Both the position numbers and the translations under genes were made by a program. The notes below the pieces were generated by a model. It was not told the origin of the DNA. It saw only the letters and a list, made by a program, of their open reading frames with translations, and did no database searches. 64,000 nt of DNA from Promethearchaeota archaeon (GTDB lineage: Archaea; Asgardarchaeota; Thorarchaeia; Thorarchaeales; Thorarchaeaceae): positions 64,001 to 128,000 of the forward strand of contig WJMJ01000078.1 in the NCBI GenBank assembly GCA_014728035.1, given 5' to 3'. Within the stretch, counting starts at the first letter, position 1, and each line of letters opens with the position of its first letter. Below are positions 6,359-51,979 of this stretch, one piece after another.

Positions 6359-8026
6359 ATGTCAAATGAAATACAAGAAGACGAGTTCAATATACACTGG
6401 ATTCGTGATGTAGTAGATGAAGTATTAGCACGTGATGTGGATGAGTATGTGCTTTCCACAGGTAAGAGTCCTAGTGGAAGTATCCATATCGGATTTGTAA
6501 GAGAACTCATAACATCAAATGTCATCAAACGAGAACTCAAAGACCTAGGCAAAAAGGCTCGTTCGTTATTTGTCGTAGATGACTATGACCCAGTACGGGC
6601 ATTTCCACCAAGCGTTTCTCTTTCATTAGATGAATGGGTCGGAATCCCCTATTGTGATGTGCCAGATGAGTTCGGATGCTGTGATAGTTTCGGGTCGCAT
6701 TGGGCAAACGAATTAATTGAAACATTTCCTGATTTTGGGCTTGACCCTGAAATCGTATGGACTAGTAAACTCTACCAGACTCCTGAGATGCGTGATGCAG
6801 TACGAATCTGTCTGAAGGAAACAGAAACATTACGTGAAATTATGATCAAGTATGTGGCTAGTGATTTCAACGACGCCCAGCGAACTAAATACATCAAAGC
6901 AATGGAGGATTGGTATCCTGCTTCAATCTTATGTCCAGAATGTGGTAAGTTTCAAGCTGGAGCAAAGGGATCTATAAAGCCCAACCGCGTTACAGGTTAC
7001 GATATAGAAACGGACCATGTCAGTTTCAAGTGTCCTGGTTGTGGGCACGAAGCCTCTGTTCCACTAGACAAAGTGAAAGTCAAATTGACTTGGCGGATTG
7101 ACTGGCCTACAAAATGGTATGTGCTAAATGTGACATGCGAACCAGCTGGAAAAGATCACTCGGTAAAAGGTGGTTCTTATGATACGGGACTTGAGGTTTC
7201 ACGTCGAGTCTTTGATTGGGCAGGCCCGGTCAAAGTACCTTATGAATGGGTCATGATTGGGGGCAGAGATATGGGAACATCAACGGGCATCGTCTTCAGT
7301 CCAAAAGTATGGACCGAGATTGCGCCACCCGAACTATATCGATTCCTTATGCTAAAGACAGACCTACAAAGAACAATCAATATTCAACCTGAACGTGTAC
7401 CAGATTTAGTTGACCAATACGATAGGTTTGAGAGGGTGTATTATGAGGTGGAAGAAACAACATCCGATGAGAAAGAATTAGCAAAACTACTGTATCCTCT
7501 TAGCGAATCAAATCCGGTGCGAAATGAGTATTTGCCAAAACTTCCATTCAAATTTGCAGTAACAATCTCACAACTAGAAGAAGTAATTGGAACAGAACCC
7601 GTTATAGCTAAATCAATCGAAGTAATGCATAAGCAATACGATATCGAGTCTGTTTCAGATGATATACTGGCACATATCAGAAAACGATTAGATAGAGCTT
7701 TAAAGTGGGTTACAAATTTCGGATCTAAAAGAGAAAAAATCGCAGTTCCAGTAGAAGTGCCTGAATCCATAATTTCGACTATAACAGATGATGACAGAAA
7801 ATTCCTTACACTTCTTTTAAAAACTCTCAGAAAATCTTCTCTGGAAGATGAAGAACTTCAGACGGAAATTTTCGAGTCAGCAAGAGAGGTTGGAATTAAG
7901 ACAAAAAGGGCATTTACTGTTCTGTATCGGATTTTGATTTCATCAAAGTCGGGACCACGTATTGGACCATTTCTAAATATGTTGGGTACTGATTGGGTAG
8001 CGAAACGTATTGAATCTGTACTCTGA
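6359..8026 (+). CDS. lysS: Lysyl-tRNA synthetase, class I
   Basis: SPSGSIHIG, KLTWRIDWP, EPAGKDH, GPRIG; zinc-ribbon CxxC motifs. Confidence 0.96.
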   Translation: MSNEIQEDEFNIHWIRDVVDEVLARDVDEYVLSTGKSPSGSIHIGFVRELITSNVIKRELKDLGKKARSLFVVDDYDPVRAFPPSVSLSLDEWVGIPYCDVPDEFGCCDSFGSHWANELIETFPDFGLDPEIVWTSKLYQTPEMRDAVRICLKETETLREIMIKYVASDFNDAQRTKYIKAMEDWYPASILCPECGKFQAGAKGSIKPNRVTGYDIETDHVSFKCPGCGHEASVPLDKVKVKLTWRIDWPTKWYVLNVTCEPAGKDHSVKGGSYDTGLEVSRRVFDWAGPVKVPYEWVMIGGRDMGTSTGIVFSPKVWTEIAPPELYRFLMLKTDLQRTINIQPERVPDLVDQYDRFERVYYEVEETTSDEKELAKLLYPLSESNPVRNEYLPKLPFKFAVTISQLEEVIGTEPVIAKSIEVMHKQYDIESVSDDILAHIRKRLDRALKWVTNFGSKREKIAVPVEVPESIISTITDDDRKFLTLLLKTLRKSSLEDEELQTEIFESAREVGIKTKRAFTVLYRILISSKSGPRIGPFLNMLGTDWVAKRIESVL

Positions 8027-31431: not shown

Positions 31432-32928
31432 GTGAATATCAACTTGATTCACAATACATTCCTCATCAAAATCTCAGGCAAAGTTTTAGCTACGGCACAA
31501 TACTGGCCAATAGAAGTGTCACAATCAGAGATTGAAGAATTTATTTCTACTAGAGAGGAAATCAAGGATGCCTCAGGTAGTGAGTTCATGAATATCCCTC
31601 TAAACATTCATGACCACAAAATGATGGCACTAGAAGTTGAGTCAGACTTGTTATTGCTTATGGTAGGAGATCATGGTGAGGATGACCGAGCTCTTAGTGA
31701 AAAACTCAAGAAAGGTGCAAGAATTTTACAGAAATATTCTGAGTCAAACGGTTCCGGTAAAATGATTCAGAATTTTGAGAGCATAATTGAATCGTCGGTT
31801 ACGACAAAACTGAAAATAGCACTAGTAGGCGAGGGCGGTGTTGGAAAAACCACTACATTACATCTCTTACTTGGAGATACACCCCCAACACAATATGTTC
31901 CCACCATTGCCTTGAATTTGGAAACGGTTGAAAATATTAGATTTGGGAACTATAGCCTAGTACTCTGGGATTTTGCTGGGCAAGAACGTTTCAGAAATCT
32001 CTGGAAGTTTTATTTCCATGGTGCTGATGTGATTTTTCTAGTCTGTGATTCTTCTTTGCGAAACGTAATTGTAAGCAAAGACATTATGAAACTCATTCGT
32101 AGAGATGCACCAAAAGTGCCACTATTTGTCATTGCCAATAAACAAGACAAACCAAATGCAATGCGTCCTGAAGTCATACAGAAAATCCTTGGCGTACCAA
32201 CATATCCAATGGTAGCAGTGGACAAGAGTCGTCGTGATGAGATGCTCCGAATTCTGATGAATGCCGCTGCACAATATGTAGGAGTTACTCTTCCGGACCT
32301 TCCAGCAACTGAGATTCTCAGATTTACTGACGAATTGTCAGAAGAGATTGCTCAGCTCGAAGGAATAGACGACTTACATGAAGAAGAAACCTCAGATGAA
32401 GAGGAATTGGAAGATGAAGATGAATATGAAATAGTTGAGGTTCTCGTTGATGAAGATGGACATATTATAGATGAAGAAGATATGGACGATGGCGAATACG
32501 AGATTGTTGAAGAATATATTGAGGAAACTGATGGAGAATATGTGGCCGAAGCAGATGAAGAAACTAAAAAGGATCCGCTCAAAACAATATCTGAAGCACT
32601 AGAAGCTGATGAGGATTTTGAATCAGAGATTGAAATGGTTTCTGAAGAAGAAATTGAAGAGAGTCTTAAGGCACTAAAGAGTGACGAGGTCGGGGACATC
32701 TCCACTGAACAACATCCTAGTGAAACCATATCCACAGGTACTATCAGAGAGTTAGAGCAAATTCTTGGAGTAATGGAACCTGTACGTTTGACAGAAAATG
32801 AATCACCAGATGATGAAGTAGAAAGACCACTTTCCATAACAAAACAGACAATTTCCGACTTGGAACAAATTCTTGGAAAAATGGAACCGGTCAATCTGCA
32901 TAATGAAGATGACGAAGATTCAGAGTAG
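31432..32928 (+). CDS. Arf-like GTPase with N-terminal longin/roadblock-like domain and long acidic repeat tail
   Basis: GEGGVGKTT, YVPTI, WDFAGQERFRNLWKFYF, NKQD; D/E-rich C-terminal 200 aa. Confidence 0.85.
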   Translation: MNINLIHNTFLIKISGKVLATAQYWPIEVSQSEIEEFISTREEIKDASGSEFMNIPLNIHDHKMMALEVESDLLLLMVGDHGEDDRALSEKLKKGARILQKYSESNGSGKMIQNFESIIESSVTTKLKIALVGEGGVGKTTTLHLLLGDTPPTQYVPTIALNLETVENIRFGNYSLVLWDFAGQERFRNLWKFYFHGADVIFLVCDSSLRNVIVSKDIMKLIRRDAPKVPLFVIANKQDKPNAMRPEVIQKILGVPTYPMVAVDKSRRDEMLRILMNAAAQYVGVTLPDLPATEILRFTDELSEEIAQLEGIDDLHEEETSDEEELEDEDEYEIVEVLVDEDGHIIDEEDMDDGEYEIVEEYIEETDGEYVAEADEETKKDPLKTISEALEADEDFESEIEMVSEEEIEESLKALKSDEVGDISTEQHPSETISTGTIRELEQILGVMEPVRLTENESPDDEVERPLSITKQTISDLEQILGKMEPVNLHNEDDEDSE

Positions 32929-36385: not shown

Positions 36386-37420
36386 GTGCCTAAACCTCGG
36401 CTAACAACAATGGTAACTTCGCACGGATGAAGCTGTAAGGTCAAACAGGATGATCTAACAAGATTACTTCAACAAGCTGGATTGCTTCCAGAAGATAAGA
36501 CCTGTTCGGATCAAGTTGGAGATGATGCAGTCGCTCAGATCTTGAGTGATAATATTGCGGTAGTAGAGAATGTAGATGTCTTCACACCGATTCACGACGA
36601 CCCATATATCCAAGGTGAAATCGTTGCATGCAATGCCTCCAATGATGTATTCGCTATGGGTGTAACCACATTGGTTTCTCTTCAAGCCTTTCTAGCTTAT
36701 CCAAAGAGTATGGATGAAGAGGTGATTGTAGATGTGCTTCGTGGAATGAATGACTTCATGGAACGCCTGAATTCCAAAGTAACTGGTGGACAGACTATAA
36801 AGAATCCATGTCCAGTTTTTGGCGGTGTATGTTTAGGTGTTATACATCCAAAGGACATCATCTATTCAAAAGGAGCCCGTCATGGAGATATCATCCTCCT
36901 AACAAAACCTCTTGGAATTCAACCCGCAATGAGGTCATATCGTGACCTTCAAGATGAGAAGAGAACTAATCTTCTTGCGGAATTCGACGAAGAGGAGTTA
37001 TGCAAAATGCAGGAAACTGCTGTAAAAATTATGACTCAAAGCAATCTCGAAGTTGCTCGGGTTATGAGAAGCATTGGTGTTCATGCTGCGACAGATGTCA
37101 CTGGATTCGGTGTTTTGGGCCATGCCCAAAATGTCGCAACTCTCAGCGAAGTCCAAATAGAAATCGAAAGTTTGCCTGTTATCAAAGGAACCTTGGAACT
37201 CGCAGAATTCTTTGGACACAAACTTGCAGCAGGATTAGGTGCAGAAACAGCGGGAGGAATGCTGGTATTCTTACATCCTGAAAAAGTCGATGCATTTCGA
37301 TACGAGTTGCGTGAGTTTGGATTACCTTGTTGGCCTATTGGACACGTAACAAAAGATTCCGATGCACCTTCAGCTTCGTTGGCTGAAGGTATAGAGTTCA
37401 TAGAGACCGATTTCCCGTGA
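36386..37420 (+). CDS. selD: Selenophosphate synthetase, selenoprotein (Sec at UGA 36428-36430)
   Basis: In-frame upstream extension MPKPRLTTMVTSHG-UGA-SCKVK after a GGAGG SD; DDA, D.F.P, DVTGFG..GH, ETAGG. Confidence 0.93.
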
Positions 37421-37509: not shown

Positions 37510-37674
37510 TCATTCTAAAAGATGATTGAGGCGATCAAAGATTTCTGTAATACCCTCTAGACTCTCCAAATCAATCTCGGGGTCCATAAACTTTCGTATT
37601 TCGATAAGCTCGTCGACGTTCTCTTCATGAAACAGCCAGAATTCTTGTTGGATTTGCTCTTTTGCTTTTGACAT
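37510..37674 (-). CDS. 54-aa acidic helical microprotein (below ORF-track cutoff)
   Basis: MSKAKEQIQQEFWLFHEENVDELIEIRKFMDPEIDLESLEGITEIFDRLNHLLE; fills the intergenic gap. Confidence 0.6.
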   Translation of the reverse strand: MSKAKEQIQQEFWLFHEENVDELIEIRKFMDPEIDLESLEGITEIFDRLNHLLE

Positions 37675-37710: not shown

Positions 37711-37764
37711 TTCGTTATTTGTCGATATAACTTCTTTGGAGAATGTTGGTTCGTTATTTGTCGA
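37711..37764. repeat. Two identical 15-bp direct repeats in a divergent promoter region
   Basis: TTCGTTATTTGTCGA at 37711-37725 and 37750-37764. Confidence 0.8.
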
Positions 37765-37866: not shown

Positions 37867-38568
37867 ATGAAGATAGTCGTCACTGGGCCATACGAAGCTG
37901 GAAAGAGCAAAATGATTCACACCATAACAGACGGTGCGTGTATCAATATTGAACGAAGAGGAACTACTATTGCAATGGATCACGGTCTTGCTAACGTAGA
38001 TGGCATGAGTGTCTTTATGTTTGGTACTCCTGGACTTTTGCGGTTTCGTACAATGCGAAAAATACTAAGCTCGGGTGCAGATGGTATCATTTTTGTAGTA
38101 GACTCCGTGGACCCAGAGGCTGATGCTCGTGCACGTCTCTTTTTCCGTGAGATTGCCTTTTTCCTTCCAGGTGTTCCTTGTATTGTTGCTGCAAACAAGC
38201 AAGATGCTGAAGGTGCAAGACATGTCGATGAACTCCGAAAACGGATGAGTTTTCTAGCGGGTGTGCCTGTAATACCCTGTTCTGCAGAAACAGGTGAAAA
38301 TGTTGATCGTCTGTTACGAACATTGCTCTATCTAACAATGATGCAATGGAGTTCTGTATTTTCGAAATTTGCAGAATATAGTGGAAATGAACAAGGGCTT
38401 AGTAAGCTTATGGATGACCTTAGTCTGCCCAGAGACCAAGCTGTAGGTTATCTAAGACGTTTTGAACTTAGAAAATTGCTAGAAGTTGCCGTTGGAGATG
38501 AGAGCTTTCATGTCAAAAAGGAAATTCATCCCATATTGGAGAACCCAGTTCTTATTATGCGCCGCTAA
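37867..38568 (+). CDS. MglA/CvnD-like small GTPase with C-terminal winged helix
   Basis: GPYEAGKS, TTIAMDHG, FGTPGLLRF, NKQD, CSA; C-terminal HTH-like segment. Confidence 0.85.
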   Translation: MKIVVTGPYEAGKSKMIHTITDGACINIERRGTTIAMDHGLANVDGMSVFMFGTPGLLRFRTMRKILSSGADGIIFVVDSVDPEADARARLFFREIAFFLPGVPCIVAANKQDAEGARHVDELRKRMSFLAGVPVIPCSAETGENVDRLLRTLLYLTMMQWSSVFSKFAEYSGNEQGLSKLMDDLSLPRDQAVGYLRRFELRKLLEVAVGDESFHVKKEIHPILENPVLIMRR

Positions 38569-38636
38569 TGTGCAGTCAGAAGGATTCAAAAGTAATATCG
38601 CAGCGCGTACAATTCAGAGTATGAGAGGTTATCCTC

Positions 38637-39491
38637 ATGAGTGATAATGAAATCGATTTAGACCCAACGGAACTTATGGAACAAGGTGAGGCTGCTTTTG
38701 AAGCCGGAGAGAAAGATATCGCCGCTAAAATCTTCAATACAGCCGGAAATGTCTATATGTCACTCGCTGAATTTGAGGGTGCCTTAGAATGTTTCGAGCG
38801 TTCTGTTGAGATTTTCAAGGAACTAGATGATGAAACGGGTATTAGCGACACCCTCTACAATCTTGGAGTAGCTCAAATAAATTTGGAACAATGGGATGAA
38901 GCTATTCTAACTTGTGAAAAAACCATGGAGAAGTTTGAAGCAGTAGATAATGAAGAAGGGACTGCAGATGCAATGTACGCTCTAGCTCTCGCTTATCACG
39001 GAAAAGGAAAAACCGACACTGCTATGGACTATTTCAAAAAAGCTCAACGTGCATACAAGAAACTTGGTAATGAACAGGGTGTTGTAAGTATCATTATGGA
39101 TATTGGGAATGTTGAAGCTGAACAAGAGAATTGGGCACAAGCCACTAAAACATTCAAAAAAGCACTCAAAATATATCAAGAACTTGATGATAAAGCTGGA
39201 ACAGCAGATGCGCTTTCACTTCTGGGAGATATTGCGGAAATTCAGGGAAAACAAAAGCAAGCTGCTGAATATTTCACCGAAGCTTCTGAGTGCTATCTTG
39301 AAGCAGAAATATACGATATTGCAAGAGAGGTATTCGAAAGAGCTGAACAGAAGCTTTGGGATATACCAAAGGCAACCAGACGTAGATTACGCAAGGTATT
39401 GGATAAAATATACGACAGGCTTCCAGAAGAGGAAGATGATGACGACGACGATGACGAAGATTTTGACGAAGATCTGCTAGAATTTCAGTAA
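38637..39491 (+). CDS. TPR (SNAP-like) protein with acidic tail
   Basis: Repeats of about 40 aa with LG..Y/A..F.KA pattern; poly-D tail. Confidence 0.88.
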   Translation: MSDNEIDLDPTELMEQGEAAFEAGEKDIAAKIFNTAGNVYMSLAEFEGALECFERSVEIFKELDDETGISDTLYNLGVAQINLEQWDEAILTCEKTMEKFEAVDNEEGTADAMYALALAYHGKGKTDTAMDYFKKAQRAYKKLGNEQGVVSIIMDIGNVEAEQENWAQATKTFKKALKIYQELDDKAGTADALSLLGDIAEIQGKQKQAAEYFTEASECYLEAEIYDIAREVFERAEQKLWDIPKATRRRLRKVLDKIYDRLPEEEDDDDDDDEDFDEDLLEFQ

Positions 39492-39688: not shown

Positions 39689-42600
39689 TTGTTGTCTGAA
39701 TGGACGCCAAAACTCAAAACTATTCTTTTAATTTCATTACTATTGCTGCCTACATTGGTTTCTATATTGCCATCAGAAGGGGTTTTTCTAGAAAATATAG
39801 ATGGAAGGAATAACTTTCAGGGAGCAAATTCACCTGAAAATGCAATACCTCTTAGAAAAGCGACATTTGTTAATCCAGATCCGGAATCTTTAATGGACGA
39901 GTTTGCTTATATCGCAGCTATCCCAACAGCAGTATTTACACATTCAAACCAACAATACATCTCTCCCTTGATTTATTCAACGCTTGTGGATAGCGATAAA
40001 TGGATGACTGAAGACTGGGCAGAGTATCTAAATATAGATGGAGGAGCTACTCAGGCAACAGTCATTGGTGACTATTCTGAATCAGAAATTCTTGCTATCC
40101 AGAAGCAAATTGGAACTCCTATTTTTCCAAGAATAACAGGATCCACCTCTGCTGAAATTGCTGCACTGTTAGCAGTTAACGATTGGCGGAGCTCATCTAC
40201 CGCAGTATTCGCAGTTGTTGAAGATACATTTGAAGAGATTGAAATCACAGAAGGTTCCGCTACATATGAGTTTTCAAATAACCCTACAACAACAACAACG
40301 CATGACGTTTCTATATCCTCTAATGACCCTGTAGAGATGACTTTTACACCAAGCTCTTCAGCAGGTTGGTTAGAAGGTTCTTTTGATTGGACATCAAGCA
40401 ATGCATATTTCACTCATCTGCTTGAAGATGCAAACGGTATGATTATTGATTATTCAACTCAAGAACATATGTATCGGAGTAGATTTAGTACATATGTAAC
40501 GAATCCAGTGCCACTTCACTTTTGGGTGCCTAAAACAGAAGATGGATCTTGGACAATGACATTCAATCCATATTCGGTTACCAGTCCATTAACCGTAACA
40601 GGAGAAATTAAACATCATCCGGGATTTACTCAGACAATCACGGTACCAGATAATGCAAAATGGCTTAATATCACAATGGACTGGAATAACGCAGCTACAG
40701 ATCTGAATATGGCATTATTAGATCCAAATGGGAGAATAGCATCTTGGGCTCCAAGTGGTAGCATTCTCTCTGGACCGAGTGTGGAAAAAGCAGAGATTTC
40801 ATATCCAATGCCAGGTCAATGGACAATTATTGGATCTTGGATGGATGCAAATGAAGAGAACAACGGAGTTAACCTCTCATGGAGCTTGGCCACTATTGAT
40901 CCGGATATCCAAGGACATATGGAGTCAGCAGCAAATGCGGCAGTTGTAGCTTCACTTCTTAATTGTCCATTACTCTATGTAACCGAATCGGATATTCCAG
41001 AGGTCACTCAGTGGGCGATGGATCGTCTTGGAGTTAGTACCAGTATTTTGGTAGATCCAGCTAATGTTCATTCATTGGGCCTTGAAACTGCACTTAGTGC
41101 TGATACTTTCTTGTCAGCATGGAGTTCTTACACGGTGGTAAGTAACCAAATTTCAATGCTATCACAAGAAACGGATGTAGTGGTAAGTATACCACTAGGC
41201 GATGGGAATGAGCTATTTGCCACTGCAGCTTTTTCAGCTGCAGCACACGGTGCACCAATATTCTCTTTGTGCGGTGACGACAACGAGCTCCCTACAAGAG
41301 CGGAAGAAACTTGGGCACCATATCTCATCGGTCCAAATATTGAGATATACATAACAGACCGGTATTCCACAAGGACCGAAAATGGATGGTATGATGATAG
41401 AATTCCCAACATATATTCTATGCGCGAATCTGCAAGTAGTTTTGAAACATTTCTATCAGACAGAGGAGCATATAACGATACGACAAGTCAGTCAGTCATC
41501 ATAGTTGCACCTACTGATATCCTTCATGTTAGTTTTGACCGATCACTTCACAGTCATTTCGTTCCTGGTCGTATTCCAGGCACAACACAAACAACAGCAT
41601 CTGTAATGATAAACAAAGGACTGTTGCACAGATTTCTATTTTCTACAGCTGAGAATGCTGATACAAGCCTTTTGACAATGTATGCATATACAAATGGAGG
41701 AGCTGCACGAGATAATTTCGATGTGAGTAGAGCTCTGTTTCAAATTGAGGAGTCACAAACATTCCTGGAATCAATGGGATTCACAGTAGGGTTACATGTT
41801 GGTGTCGAAGAGGTCAACTCAATGATTGATTCGCAAATTGGTCTATGGTCAATCAGTACCCACGGAACTCTAACATTATATCCAACAGATCCACCCGAAA
41901 GACCAAGTGGACCGGGTATCTTCTCTTTACGAAATGAAGATGCGACATGGGGTTTTGAAGAATCCTTATCCAATAGAGAAGCAAATGGAGATGGTCTAGT
42001 TAATCCAGTTGCATTCCAAAACGAGTATAGTCATCATACTACTCGAAGCACCGAGGATTTAGAACAAGTGATAGAAAATATTGGATCACCAATTGTGTTC
42101 TTGACGGCATGTCTTCTTGGTGGAACACAACTACCTTTGACACTCATGGAACATGGAGCTGTAGCAGTAACAGCAGCACCAAGAACAGTATACTTCAATC
42201 CTGCATGTTATCTGTCAGTACTAATGACCGAAAAACTCGCTGAAGGAAACTCAACCGGTTTTGCGTTATCCGAAGGACTCAGGCATTCTTCAGTAGACTA
42301 TACCGATCCTTTGGGATATGAACCAGTCGATTATGCCAATCAACAGATTCTCTTTGGAGATCCAGAAGTACATCTCTATACAACGGACGATTTTCCCCAT
42401 GTAACATCAATTGATGGATACACAACAAACTTTGGAAATCATCGGCCAGGGAATGGAGTGCCAGCCGTAGCTGCACTTGGTGAAACATCATATCTTCCAG
42501 ATACATTAGAGGTTCTTAATGTTGAATACCTTTACTACCAAGTATCAAACATGAGTGAATTTATCAGACTGCTTCAGCTTTCTCGCGTGACCGTGGTCGA

Positions 42601-43513
42601 GCCTGGAGCTTATGGAACTCTAGAATCAGATTTGAACGCAAACAGTGTTCTTCTGGACTCTTACGTTCGTGGAGGTGGCACCTTTGTTGCTCTAGGTCTC
42701 ACGGATAACACTAGTTGGATTCCTTGGCCGCTCTCATACGATTCAAGTTCATCTAGTTCATCCATTTCAATAGATGATGCTGGACATCCTCTTGTATCGC
42801 TACCCAACGTATTAGGGTCGTCAGTAGATACAATTGGGCATTTCAGTTCCGTTTGGAGTAACCTTTCTGTTATTGCAACCAGTAGCAATCAACCAGTAAT
42901 TATTGGCGGTGTTATTGGAGCAGGAAAACTTGCGTTCACTACAACACATCCAGAAGGAGAAGAGAGAAACAAGACAATAAATAACATTGTAGAATGGTAC
43001 CTAAAACCATCAATCATTGTAGATTCAGTAAGCTTGAGTCAGTACATCATTTGGGAGGGTGATACTGTCACTATCCATGTTTCCCTATCAGATAGAAGTG
43101 GAACTCCAGTTAGCGATGTGGATCTCAGGGCCTGGGTGAATTATACTGCAGTTGATGTGATAGAGATAGGAACAGGTCTCTATGATATTTTCCTTGACCG
43201 GTCCTGGACTAATGGTCGTATAGGAAAACTCGACTTGCAATTGAGAGGTGTGAAAACTGGTTATGATACCTTATCTGTCGTATTCACCGAGTACGTTTTT
43301 ATTAGGCAATTCCCATGGATTCCGATTCTTCTTGTGGGAGGTACTTTTGCAGCCGTGGTTATTGGATATTTCTACATGAGATATCGTAGGGGAGAAGATC
43401 TGATTCCACGAAGAGGAAGTAAAGACAAATACAAAGGCCCAACTCCAGAGGAGAAAAAGAAACAACGGGAAGAAGATGAAAAATTCGACCCCAAGGAATT
43501 CTTTGGTGTATAG
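39689..43513 (+). CDS. Large membrane-anchored surface protein with CWB2-like repeats and C25/gingipain-like peptidase domain
   Basis: Signal peptide; RITGSTSAEIA, AAVVASLLNCPLLYV; STHGT...TACL...ILFGDP; C-terminal TM. Confidence 0.6.
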   Translation: MLSEWTPKLKTILLISLLLLPTLVSILPSEGVFLENIDGRNNFQGANSPENAIPLRKATFVNPDPESLMDEFAYIAAIPTAVFTHSNQQYISPLIYSTLVDSDKWMTEDWAEYLNIDGGATQATVIGDYSESEILAIQKQIGTPIFPRITGSTSAEIAALLAVNDWRSSSTAVFAVVEDTFEEIEITEGSATYEFSNNPTTTTTHDVSISSNDPVEMTFTPSSSAGWLEGSFDWTSSNAYFTHLLEDANGMIIDYSTQEHMYRSRFSTYVTNPVPLHFWVPKTEDGSWTMTFNPYSVTSPLTVTGEIKHHPGFTQTITVPDNAKWLNITMDWNNAATDLNMALLDPNGRIASWAPSGSILSGPSVEKAEISYPMPGQWTIIGSWMDANEENNGVNLSWSLATIDPDIQGHMESAANAAVVASLLNCPLLYVTESDIPEVTQWAMDRLGVSTSILVDPANVHSLGLETALSADTFLSAWSSYTVVSNQISMLSQETDVVVSIPLGDGNELFATAAFSAAAHGAPIFSLCGDDNELPTRAEETWAPYLIGPNIEIYITDRYSTRTENGWYDDRIPNIYSMRESASSFETFLSDRGAYNDTTSQSVIIVAPTDILHVSFDRSLHSHFVPGRIPGTTQTTASVMINKGLLHRFLFSTAENADTSLLTMYAYTNGGAARDNFDVSRALFQIEESQTFLESMGFTVGLHVGVEEVNSMIDSQIGLWSISTHGTLTLYPTDPPERPSGPGIFSLRNEDATWGFEESLSNREANGDGLVNPVAFQNEYSHHTTRSTEDLEQVIENIGSPIVFLTACLLGGTQLPLTLMEHGAVAVTAAPRTVYFNPACYLSVLMTEKLAEGNSTGFALSEGLRHSSVDYTDPLGYEPVDYANQQILFGDPEVHLYTTDDFPHVTSIDGYTTNFGNHRPGNGVPAVAALGETSYLPDTLEVLNVEYLYYQVSNMSEFIRLLQLSRVTVVEPGAYGTLESDLNANSVLLDSYVRGGGTFVALGLTDNTSWIPWPLSYDSSSSSSSISIDDAGHPLVSLPNVLGSSVDTIGHFSSVWSNLSVIATSSNQPVIIGGVIGAGKLAFTTTHPEGEERNKTINNIVEWYLKPSIIVDSVSLSQYIIWEGDTVTIHVSLSDRSGTPVSDVDLRAWVNYTAVDVIEIGTGLYDIFLDRSWTNGRIGKLDLQLRGVKTGYDTLSVVFTEYVFIRQFPWIPILLVGGTFAAVVIGYFYMRYRRGEDLIPRRGSKDKYKGPTPEEKKKQREEDEKFDPKEFFGV

Positions 43514-43612: not shown

Positions 43613-43975
43613 ATGACCAGTCGGGTAGATAAAATCAATAAAATCATCAGGGACTTCGAAACTGTACCAGGAGTGGAGGGAGCTGCTCTGGTGTCATTGG
43701 ATGGCTTGATGATATCCTCCGCACTTCCAGAAAGTGAACAAGAAAGGGTTGCAGCAATTAGTGCAGCTATGCTAACTTTGGGAGATAAAGCAACAGGGGA
43801 ATTGGATCGTGGAAACCTTGAACAGGTATACGTCAAGGGAGATAGAGGATACACACTGCTAACTTCTGTAGGAGAAACTGCACTGTTGCTTGTTCTAGCA
43901 AAGGTTGATGCACAACTAGGTTTGATATTTATGGATATGAAGAGGATGGCTGAAACCTTACTAGATGTTCTCTAA
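43613..43975 (+). CDS. Roadblock/LC7 (MglB-like) protein
   Basis: AALVSLDGLMISS...ERVAAISAA...LGLIF. Confidence 0.93.
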   Translation: MTSRVDKINKIIRDFETVPGVEGAALVSLDGLMISSALPESEQERVAAISAAMLTLGDKATGELDRGNLEQVYVKGDRGYTLLTSVGETALLLVLAKVDAQLGLIFMDMKRMAETLLDVL

Positions 43976-51130: not shown

Positions 51131-51979
51131 TTGGAGAGAGGTTTGTCCCGAATCAAAAGATGGATCTCCCGACTTAGAGGTACCAGTGAAGAAGAGAACG
51201 AGATAGAGTCTACTGAAACCTCCTCGGAAGAACATAGAAAAGCCAAAACAACCGACAGTTCTAAGACAGTCAGTTCTATGAATCTCACACCACCTCCTAA
51301 TGGAACCTTAATCGCATCTGAGAAAGGAATGCTGATAGATCGTGAGGTTACAACTGAACTAGCTCAAAGGGCTCAAATCACTCGCCAACGGGTAGAAGAA
51401 ATTGTTCCGGGAAAAGCAATAAAACGTGATAAACAAGGGCGAGTTCACATTAAAATCGTGTTCTATGGCCCATCACTATCTGGAAAAACAACAGCTCTTA
51501 GATGGCTTTTTGCAAATGTGCGATCTTTATCAAAAGGAAAAATAGTTGAGATTGCGGATGAGCTAGGACGTACTACATTCTTTGATTTTGTGCCAATTGC
51601 AGCAAACGAGAAAATCGTATTTGATGTCTTTACTGTAGCTGGACAGAGACGTCATGCGCAAAGCAGAATCACAGTTCTTCGTGATGTGGATGGACTGATA
51701 TTTATGGCGGATAGTCAACCAGAGCAAATGAATGAAAATTTGGCTTCCATCCAAGAACTACGTATTGCCCTAGGAACAGATAGACTATCCACGATGCCCA
51801 TTGTAGTATCATTGAATAAAAGAGACCTTCCGAACGCTCTACCCATTGACTATATGGTAAGAATGCTTGACTTAGAAGGGTTACCTGTCTTTCCAACTAT
51901 TGCTACAGAAGGAAAGAATTTACTAAGAATGTTTCAACGTGTTTTGCGTGACGCATTGATTTTCAAGATAGGAATATGA
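51131..51979 (+). CDS. MglA-like GTPase with N-terminal extension
   Basis: KIVFYGPSLSGKTT, RTTFFDF, TVAGQ, NKRD. Confidence 0.9.
   Translation: MERGLSRIKRWISRLRGTSEEENEIESTETSSEEHRKAKTTDSSKTVSSMNLTPPPNGTLIASEKGMLIDREVTTELAQRAQITRQRVEEIVPGKAIKRDKQGRVHIKIVFYGPSLSGKTTALRWLFANVRSLSKGKIVEIADELGRTTFFDFVPIAANEKIVFDVFTVAGQRRHAQSRITVLRDVDGLIFMADSQPEQMNENLASIQELRIALGTDRLSTMPIVVSLNKRDLPNALPIDYMVRMLDLEGLPVFPTIATEGKNLLRMFQRVLRDALIFKIGI

Follow-up and report, generated by a model that had tools for sequence, protein, structure and literature searches.

A winged-helix GTPase family of Asgard archaea without the switch-II glutamine, and its tetratricopeptide repeat and Roadblock neighbors in Thor genomes

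Replacement of the switch-II glutamine (Gln) by leucine (Leu) abolishes hydrolysis in Ras and Arf, and Rnd3/RhoE and RhoH are small GTPases that naturally do without the catalytic Gln. Together with Rap and the prokaryotic Rup group 1 proteins, in which the nucleotide-binding motifs are kept, such Gln-less GTPases are either constitutively GTP-bound or are supplied with the missing residue by a GTPase-activating protein (GAP). In Myxococcus xanthus, the small GTPase MglA works with a dimer of the Roadblock protein MglB and with SgmX, a tetratricopeptide repeat (TPR) protein (PMC2907295, PMC7519303). The engineered MglA variant Q82L binds GTP without hydrolyzing it and is insensitive to MglB (PMC2907295); Roadblock GAPs of the MglB type contribute no catalytic residue (PMC4316618); and SgmX and Bd2492 are TPR proteins that act as direct effectors of MglA-GTP (PMC7519303). 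The related MglA groups 2–5, which include archaeal group 4 and actinobacterial CvnD, are recognized by GTPG in the G3 motif and by TT in G2 with no arginine (Arg) finger (PMC4316618). Asgard archaea encode dozens of small GTPases as well as Roadblock and longin proteins. Ideas on how eukaryotic trafficking arose give these proteins a central place, yet hardly any Asgard GTPase has been matched to a regulator or effector (PMC10933270). The present study concerns one of these GTPases, a protein of 233 amino acids (aa) with a carboxy terminal winged helix, and the genes that surround it. It is encoded in a 64,000-nucleotide stretch of the genome of a Promethearchaeota archaeon of the Thorarchaeaceae (assembly GCA_014728035.1, contig WJMJ01000078.1, positions 64,001 to 128,000), which is referred to as the window and whose numbering is used throughout.

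The protein belongs to an Asgard-wide, usually single-copy subfamily of the MglA groups 2–5 type in which the GTPase domain is fused to a winged helix. This family is previously undescribed, the new features being the fusion and the clade-wide loss of Gln on a GTPase of this type, and no paper describing such a fusion was found in the limited literature that was searched. Like the proteins of groups 2–5, it presents GTPG without an aspartate, TT in G2 and R-F after the catalytic site, its nearest relatives carry FGTPGQxRF, its structure is MglA-like and a Roadblock gene is found in the Thor locus. Unlike them, the clade has Leu for Gln, a fused winged helix, two invariants (R64 and D72) and a Roadblock gene that is mostly non-adjacent.

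As listed in Table 1, the sequence hallmarks of the Ras superfamily are present, namely G1 (GxxxxGK[ST]), the G2 threonine (Thr; T34, preceded by T33), G4 ([NT]KxD) and G5 (SA). The Ras-type DxxGQ of G3 reads G-T-P-G-L, with both the aspartate and the Gln replaced. Since G1, the G2 Thr, NKQD and SA are all preserved, the protein should bind Mg-GTP. The open reading frame (ORF) starts with M-K-I-V-V immediately 3' of a conserved GGTG-type ribosome-binding site and is single copy in the source genome. Matches in Pfam were to Ras, Arf and MMR_HSR1 (Ras, 38 bits against a cut-off of 21.6), and NCBIfam TIGR00231 (small_GTP) scored 54.4 bits against a cut-off of 42.5; residues 160–233 were covered by no family of either database above threshold. 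The top PDB sequence matches were the Asgard ArfR entries 8OUM and 8OUK, both of which are engineered Q-to-L mutants (bioRxiv 10.1101/2024.02.28.582541). The AlphaFold2 (AF2) model of the full protein is of high quality (predicted local distance difference test, pLDDT = 92.9; predicted template modeling score, pTM = 0.90). In a Foldseek search with this model, the GTPase domain dominated the matches, and the best superposition was with MglA in its complex with MglB (3t1q_A, TMq 0.63, root-mean-square deviation 2.2 Å).

Table 1. Features of the GTPase–winged-helix locus in window coordinates.
Feature	Position	Strand	Details or basis
54-aa microprotein gene, divergent	37510..37674	-	Motif FWLFHD...RKFIDPE.DL...LNHLL; ORF list
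Two exact copies of TTCGTTATTTGTCGA	37711-25, 37750-64		Divergent promoter region, 39 nt apart
GTPase–winged-helix gene	37867..38568	+	233 aa; ORF list
Domains of the GTPase–winged-helix protein	within 37867..38568	+	GTPase domain, residues 1-160; winged helix-turn-helix, ~162-216; short C-terminal helices, 221-230; AF2 model
G1 P-loop GPYEAGKS	37885..37908	+	Intact; position 4 without Asn, so no K+-loop type signature
G3/switch II F52-G53-T54-P55-G56-L57-L58-R59-F60	38020..38046	+	Sequence
Leu57 codon CTT at catalytic Gln position	38035-38037	+	Sequence
G4 NKQD (guanine specificity)	38194..38205	+	Intact
G5 SA (S139-A140)	38281-38286	+	Intact
Winged helix-turn-helix	38350..38514	+	Helices 162-171, 177-185, 189-201; beta hairpin 205-216 (AF2)
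Acidic TPR protein	38637..39491	+	284 aa, pI 4.2; Pfam
1274-aa surface protein	39689..43513	+	N-terminal signal/transmembrane segment, C-terminal transmembrane helix, charged cytoplasmic tail
Roadblock/LC7 (MglB-like) protein	43613..43975	+	120 aa; Pfam Robl_LC7 E 8e-21

A preliminary description of the locus, made from the letters of the DNA, had noticed FGTPG-L-LRF encoded with a CTT codon, next to intact G1, G4 and G5 motifs, as a departure from a family norm of FGTPG-Q-xRF. The ORF and its codon bear out this reading, and the norm is borne out by the wider family, in which Gln occupies the site in 88 of 150 representatives at 50% identity by motif scan and in 98 of 144 aligned GTPase domains. 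The same description had allowed that the Leu might be a singleton or a sequencing error, a matter for an alignment of orthologs. That alignment was made and rules this out. A first search found 117 homologs, and every one of the 112 that cover the site reads G-L (105 L-L-R-F and seven L-E-[HR]-F); one further sequence has F-G-F-P-G-L and another has a deletion ahead of the Leu. In alignments down to 29% identity, 32 of 37 sequences have Leu at the site, five have M, H, K, E or F, and Gln does not occur. All six Leu codons (CTC, CTT, CTA, CTG, TTA and TTG) are used at the site over the fetched loci, and because Leu persists through so many synonymous codon changes, the residue is under selection. 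Since two base changes separate CTT from a Gln codon, a single sequencing error cannot account for Leu57.

Relatives for placing the family were collected with a HMMER scan over 1.84 billion representatives, which found 1348. Immediately after the members that bear the winged helix, the list is dominated by FGTPGQxRF proteins, either stand-alone GTPases of ~170 aa or proteins of ~390 aa with an N-terminal KaiC-like domain; the sequences closest to the winged-helix clade are GTPases of the GTPGQ type. In a tree of 144 GTPase domains, all 25 representatives that have the C-terminal domain group in a single clade (support 0.946), intruded upon by only one fragment and one short protein on a long branch. 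GTPG is kept and Q is replaced in all 25, mostly by L and rarely by M, H, K, E or F. From a single clade of winged-helix sequences without Gln, it follows that both changes, the disappearance of Gln and the acquisition of the C-terminal domain, map to one branch. Set against the Gln-bearing relatives, the residues L57, R64, G70, D72, F76 and S139 are invariants specific to the clade, and beside G2 the intrinsic Arg finger is replaced by Thr (T33 in 84% and T34 in 100% of the clade). Matches in the ESM Atlas were confined to the family's own cluster and to generic GTPase clusters, and no longer fused forms, for example with TPR or Roadblock domains, were detected at E ≤ 1e-10, which is a weak form of evidence. 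Among the closest Gln-bearing relatives are P0137, P0150, P0133 and P0210, which include fusion proteins of ~390 aa that join a KaiC-like ATPase domain to a GTPGQ GTPase; P0210 (527 aa) combines a KaiC-like domain, a GTPGQ GTPase and a C-terminal Roadblock domain.

Among the 301 Asgard genomes sampled, 227 have a match at E ≤ 1e-25 and about 200 have one at the full-length level (E ≤ 1e-59). The GTPase is carried by 73 of the 76 genomes of the Thor family to which the window belongs, and named members occur in the Thor, Odin, Hod, Frey, Wukong, Borr, Hel and Njord lineages. With an identity of 76–84% across Thor genera, the GTPase evolves slowly, and the family, with members in roughly two thirds of the genomes sampled, ranks among the more broadly conserved GTPases of Asgard archaea. 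For three families (f13, f15 and f27) the best match is a short form without the C-terminal domain, two with Gln and one with Leu. A stand-alone relative of 171 aa from family f15 (genome G029, L066 7005–7520) reads G-L-N-R-F and has no winged helix, which points either to a secondary loss of the domain or to a substitution older than the fusion. P0147 and P0193 are further short forms that carry Leu.

The C-terminal domain was modeled separately from the GTPase domain (pLDDT = 79.9) and presented a three-helix bundle followed by a beta-hairpin wing. Foldseek matched it to CggR, MepR, SarX, MarR, IclR and LysR-type proteins (TMq 0.6–0.7, probability ~1), and every match listed is the DNA-binding domain of a transcriptional regulator, mostly of the winged-helix type. 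VIA-align gave a Z score of 8.6 to MarR (5h3r) and AF1382 over 76–78 residues, and its highest-ranked rows include MarR, PadR, DtxR and ArsR domains with Z scores of 8.6–7.0 over 71–78 residues. Winged helix families of Pfam were reached at the sub-threshold level only (TFIIE_alpha in 5 of 21 members, HTH_45 in three and TrmB in two). The HTH-like extension of the preliminary description is supported by the AF2 model and by both structural comparisons, and the assignment of the modeled C-terminal ~75 residues to a MarR-like winged helix is solid.

In the window, the GTPase gene is preceded by the divergent 54-aa gene and followed by the genes for the TPR protein, the 1274-aa protein and the Roadblock protein. 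This five-gene array is collinear in 10 Thor-family genomes, namely the source, L002 and eight others that represent seven genera; an order-level relative from family f2 has the array in collinear form without the 54-aa gene. The GTPase (76–80% identity) and the Roadblock protein (77–86%) are much better conserved over the array than the TPR protein (54–68%) and the surface protein (44–51%).

An adjacent acidic TPR gene had been noted from the start, and the product is matched by TPR_12 (E 8.9e-32) and by TPR_2 and TPR_1 (E ~1e-23) over tandem 34-residue repeats. Its orthologs have isoelectric points (pI) of 4.1–4.4, a conserved poly-acidic tail of the FDEDLL type and an invariant motif, D-[IL]-P-K-A-T-R-R-R, at residues 242–250 (P-K-A-T-R-R-R at 39366–39386). 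The TPR gene lies 3' of the GTPase gene in 30 of 30 Thor/f2 loci and in eight further genomes. In Odin (f3) and in f21, an orthologous pair of solenoid proteins of ~380 aa lies directly upstream of the GTPase. Orthology between the Thor TPR protein and this solenoid was considered and rejected, the similarity being at the level of the repeats (E 0.004). Pairing of the GTPase with a TPR protein thus stands for Thor f1/f2, with another form in Odin f3/f21, but not as a trait of the whole family; it is recurrent but lineage-specific.

The 1274-aa surface protein has weak similarity to Peptidase_C25/PPC. Its last ~45 residues comprise the transmembrane helix and the charged cytoplasmic tail, which ends in K-E-F-F-G-V at the extreme C-terminus; this hexapeptide is kept across Thor genera and is degenerate in the f2 relative. 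Because conserved C-terminal peptides are often bound by TPR domains, the KEFFGV tail is a candidate ligand of the adjoining TPR protein. The Roadblock gene lies on the same strand ~5 kb downstream of the GTPase gene and is collinear with it in Thor f1/f2; it is not adjacent in Odin or in most other Asgard families. Its product is the ortholog of PDB 7F8M (7f8m_A, E 1.3e-56 over the full length) and also matches CvnB5 (3leq, E 4.5e-9). The crystallized 7F8M is probably the Thor-RB protein, whose authors could not assign GTPase partners to it (PMC10933270). The 54-aa protein is conserved at the protein level in at least 18 of 30 Thor loci, with no match in 27 other Asgard loci and none in Pfam or NCBIfam, and the ORF is a genuine microprotein gene that is conserved and specific to Thor.

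Two described modules resemble this locus. Like the MglA/MglB/SgmX system, Thor combines a small GTPase, a Roadblock dimer and a TPR protein, and the residue engineered in MglA Q82L is the natural one of the Thor GTPase. However, MglA cycles and is equipped with both Gln and an intrinsic Arg finger, neither of which the Thor GTPase has; the Thor TPR protein is small and acidic and is homologous to SgmX in its repeats only; and the Thor locus adds a giant surface protein and a microprotein. With the CvnA-D conservon, the locus shares a GTPGQ-type GTPase, a CvnB-like Roadblock protein, a membrane protein and an HTH-like component. In contrast to the conservon, G4 is NKQD rather than NxFD, GTPase and winged helix form one protein and the Gln is lost. 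No histidine kinase domain was identified in the proteins of the locus, and DUF742/CvnC was absent from the scan of the C-terminal domain and gave no match above cut-off in the genome.

With moderate confidence, we favor a reading in which the protein is a GTP-binding switch with slow intrinsic hydrolysis and a winged-helix output that, in Thor, has TPR and Roadblock partners. The subfamily acquired its MarR-like winged helix on the very branch on which the switch-II Gln disappeared. Since it has neither this Gln nor an intrinsic Arg finger, the GTPase is predicted to hydrolyze GTP very slowly when alone. The MglA precedent for a Q-to-L lock, to which the preliminary description had appealed, is sound (PMC2907295), and like MglA Q82L the GTPase is predicted not to respond to a Roadblock GAP whose action is limited to repositioning intrinsic residues. 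It would then be a long-lived GTP-bound switch under the control of nucleotide exchange, or it would need a partner that inserts catalytic residues, with the winged helix as its built-in output or adaptor domain. The family would carry, clade-wide and built-in, the equivalent of the "constitutively active" Q-to-L mutation together with an output domain, and if hydrolysis is truly lost or supplied in trans, it would be a natural experiment on a Ras-like switch without its own catalytic residue. In Thor, the acidic TPR protein is probably an effector or adaptor, as SgmX and Bd2492 are for MglA-GTP. It may recognize the giant surface protein by its cytoplasmic KEFFGV tail, and the Roadblock dimer is a putative regulator or scaffold. 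The Thor locus offers a concrete and testable pairing of a GTPase, a TPR protein, a Roadblock protein of solved structure and a surface protein.

Several points weigh against this reading. P0243, a short representative that does bear Gln, falls inside the winged-helix clade on a long branch. Beyond Thor and Odin, the neighbors of the GTPase are unrelated housekeeping genes, and therefore a TPR/Roadblock module cannot explain the core function of the family; these neighbors include genes for IleRS, 4-HFC-P synthase, AOR, PcrB, a glycosyltransferase and Prok-RING zinc-finger proteins. Finally, a natural hydrophobic substitution does not by itself prove a loss of hydrolysis (bioRxiv 10.1101/2020.08.16.253419). 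The HAS-GTPases Era, FeoB, MnmE and YqeH are hydrophobic at the Gln site yet hydrolyze GTP by other means, and here the invariant R64 and D72 or the winged helix could be the source of an alternative mechanism. The hydrolysis-poor or trans-catalyzed GTPase of the preliminary description is a reasonable inference from the clade-wide Leu and the lack of an Arg finger, but the substitution alone does not establish it.

The main rival is of the HAS-GTPase type: hydrolysis would be normal or inducible through another mechanism in cis, involving R64, D72, a residue of the winged helix or nucleotide-dependent dimerization, and the Leu would be no GTP lock. Natural hydrophobic substitutions that remain active are documented (bioRxiv 10.1101/2020.08.16.253419; PMC2848588), and the hydrophobic L57 is a natural residue here as in Era, FeoB, MnmE, YqeH and EngA. 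R64, G70 and D72 became invariant along with the Q-to-L change, the pTM of the full model implies a fixed arrangement of the GTPase domain and the winged helix, and the Leu site of divergent members can hold H, E, K or M. However, the known HAS-GTPases belong to the ribosome- and tRNA-associated TRAFAC class, and many of them have a K+-loop and a P-loop asparagine. The Thor GTPase lacks this signature, having a glutamate (E10) at position 4 of the P-loop, where asparagine occurs only in some divergent members. Moreover, in MglA, the nearest studied relative, Q82L kills hydrolysis (PMC2907295). We regard this explanation as unlikely, though serious.

A second alternative is catalysis in trans, in which a partner, either the TPR protein with its PKATRRR motif or a Roadblock complex, inserts an Arg, asparagine or Gln as RapGAP does for Rap. 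The conserved RRR motif stands immediately after the TPR array, every Thor genome examined has TPR and Roadblock genes in collinear order with the GTPase, and the Gln-less group 1 Rup GTPases, which, like Rap, Rnd3/RhoE and RhoH, are of an unrelated subfamily without a winged-helix fusion, have been proposed to receive a Gln in trans (PMC4316618). Most Asgard lineages that keep the Leu, however, have no TPR or Roadblock neighbors, and a Roadblock GAP of the MglB type would bring no catalytic residue of its own (PMC4316618), so that trans catalysis seems distinctly improbable.

Returning to the slow-hydrolysis switch, its most far-reaching form is a pan-Asgard, naturally GTP-locked switch of the MglA type with winged-helix output that, in Thor, is wired through the TPR protein and Thor-RB to the KEFFGV tail. 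This extension is speculative and we give it a rather low probability. If true, it would constitute an archaeal transmembrane G-protein signaling module, similar to a conservon or to MglA/MglB/SgmX, and the missing GTPase partner of the crystallized Asgard Roadblock protein would be identified.

The preliminary description had also raised the possibility of DNA binding, and the fold led to a third alternative, a GTP-dependent transcription regulator whose winged helix binds DNA, for example the repeats of its own divergent promoter, with an affinity set by the nucleotide state. In its favor, the nearest folds are the DNA-binding domains of MarR, CggR and DtxR, and winged helix-turn-helix regulators accompany MglA group 3 systems (PMC4316618). 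However, pI values of the winged helix span 5.2 to 10.4 within the family, with 6.9 for the protein of the window, its conserved positions are mostly core hydrophobics with one Arg as the sole conserved basic residue, and protein contacts are the role of many winged helices in archaea and eukaryotes.

The upstream repeats are similarly divided. Copy 1 of TTCGTTATTTGTCGA is kept in related Thor genomes beside a TATA-like GATATA, ~50 nt from the start of the 54-aa gene, and copy 2 is confined to the source genus. Four exact copies of the 13-mer TCGACAAATAACG are present in the 4.3-Mb genome, where ~0.1 would be expected, and all lie in 5' or divergent intergenic regions: in the window at 37711–37764, and at G000:C10 27067 and 30907 (L072 3068–3080 and 6908–6920), upstream of genes for an alpha/beta hydrolase and a GT2 glycosyltransferase. 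Neither the 8-mer core TTTGTCGA (3 occurrences in the window against 2.5 expected) nor the 15-mer TTCGTTATTTGTCGA with up to two mismatches (13 matches genome-wide against 15 for the control) is enriched, and a near-copy at 6562 falls within an ORF. A regulon for the repeat was dropped for this reason, with the exact 13-mer alone standing out. TCGACAAATAACG could be an operator or promoter element of some regulator, and the repeat scans gave no evidence that links it to the GTPase–winged-helix protein; the repeat may be no more than promoter sequence for the 54-aa gene. With the variable charge of the domain, the genus-specific second copy and the lack of enrichment, DNA binding by the winged helix is unsupported, and a role as regulator is very unlikely.

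Some further genes near the GTPase and in the window deserve mention. In Loki-like lineages (L004 6794–8983 and L059 7828–8994), a Prok-RING_1/zinc-ribbon protein, not a TPR protein, follows the orthologous GTPase. In the order-level relative (L008 3496–4633), the GTPase locus has two V4R/TRAPP-like genes immediately upstream, encoded on the opposite strand. Within the window, a SelD-like AIRS/AIRS_C protein is encoded at 36482–37420 (+) by an ORF that, as called, is without the N-terminal active-site region. A multidomain small-GTPase gene of 498 aa, whose ortholog has Arf/Ras/Roc matches, is found at 31432–32928 (+), and another at ~51521–51958 (+) within a frame of 309 aa; both are only 29–32% identical to the GTPase studied here.

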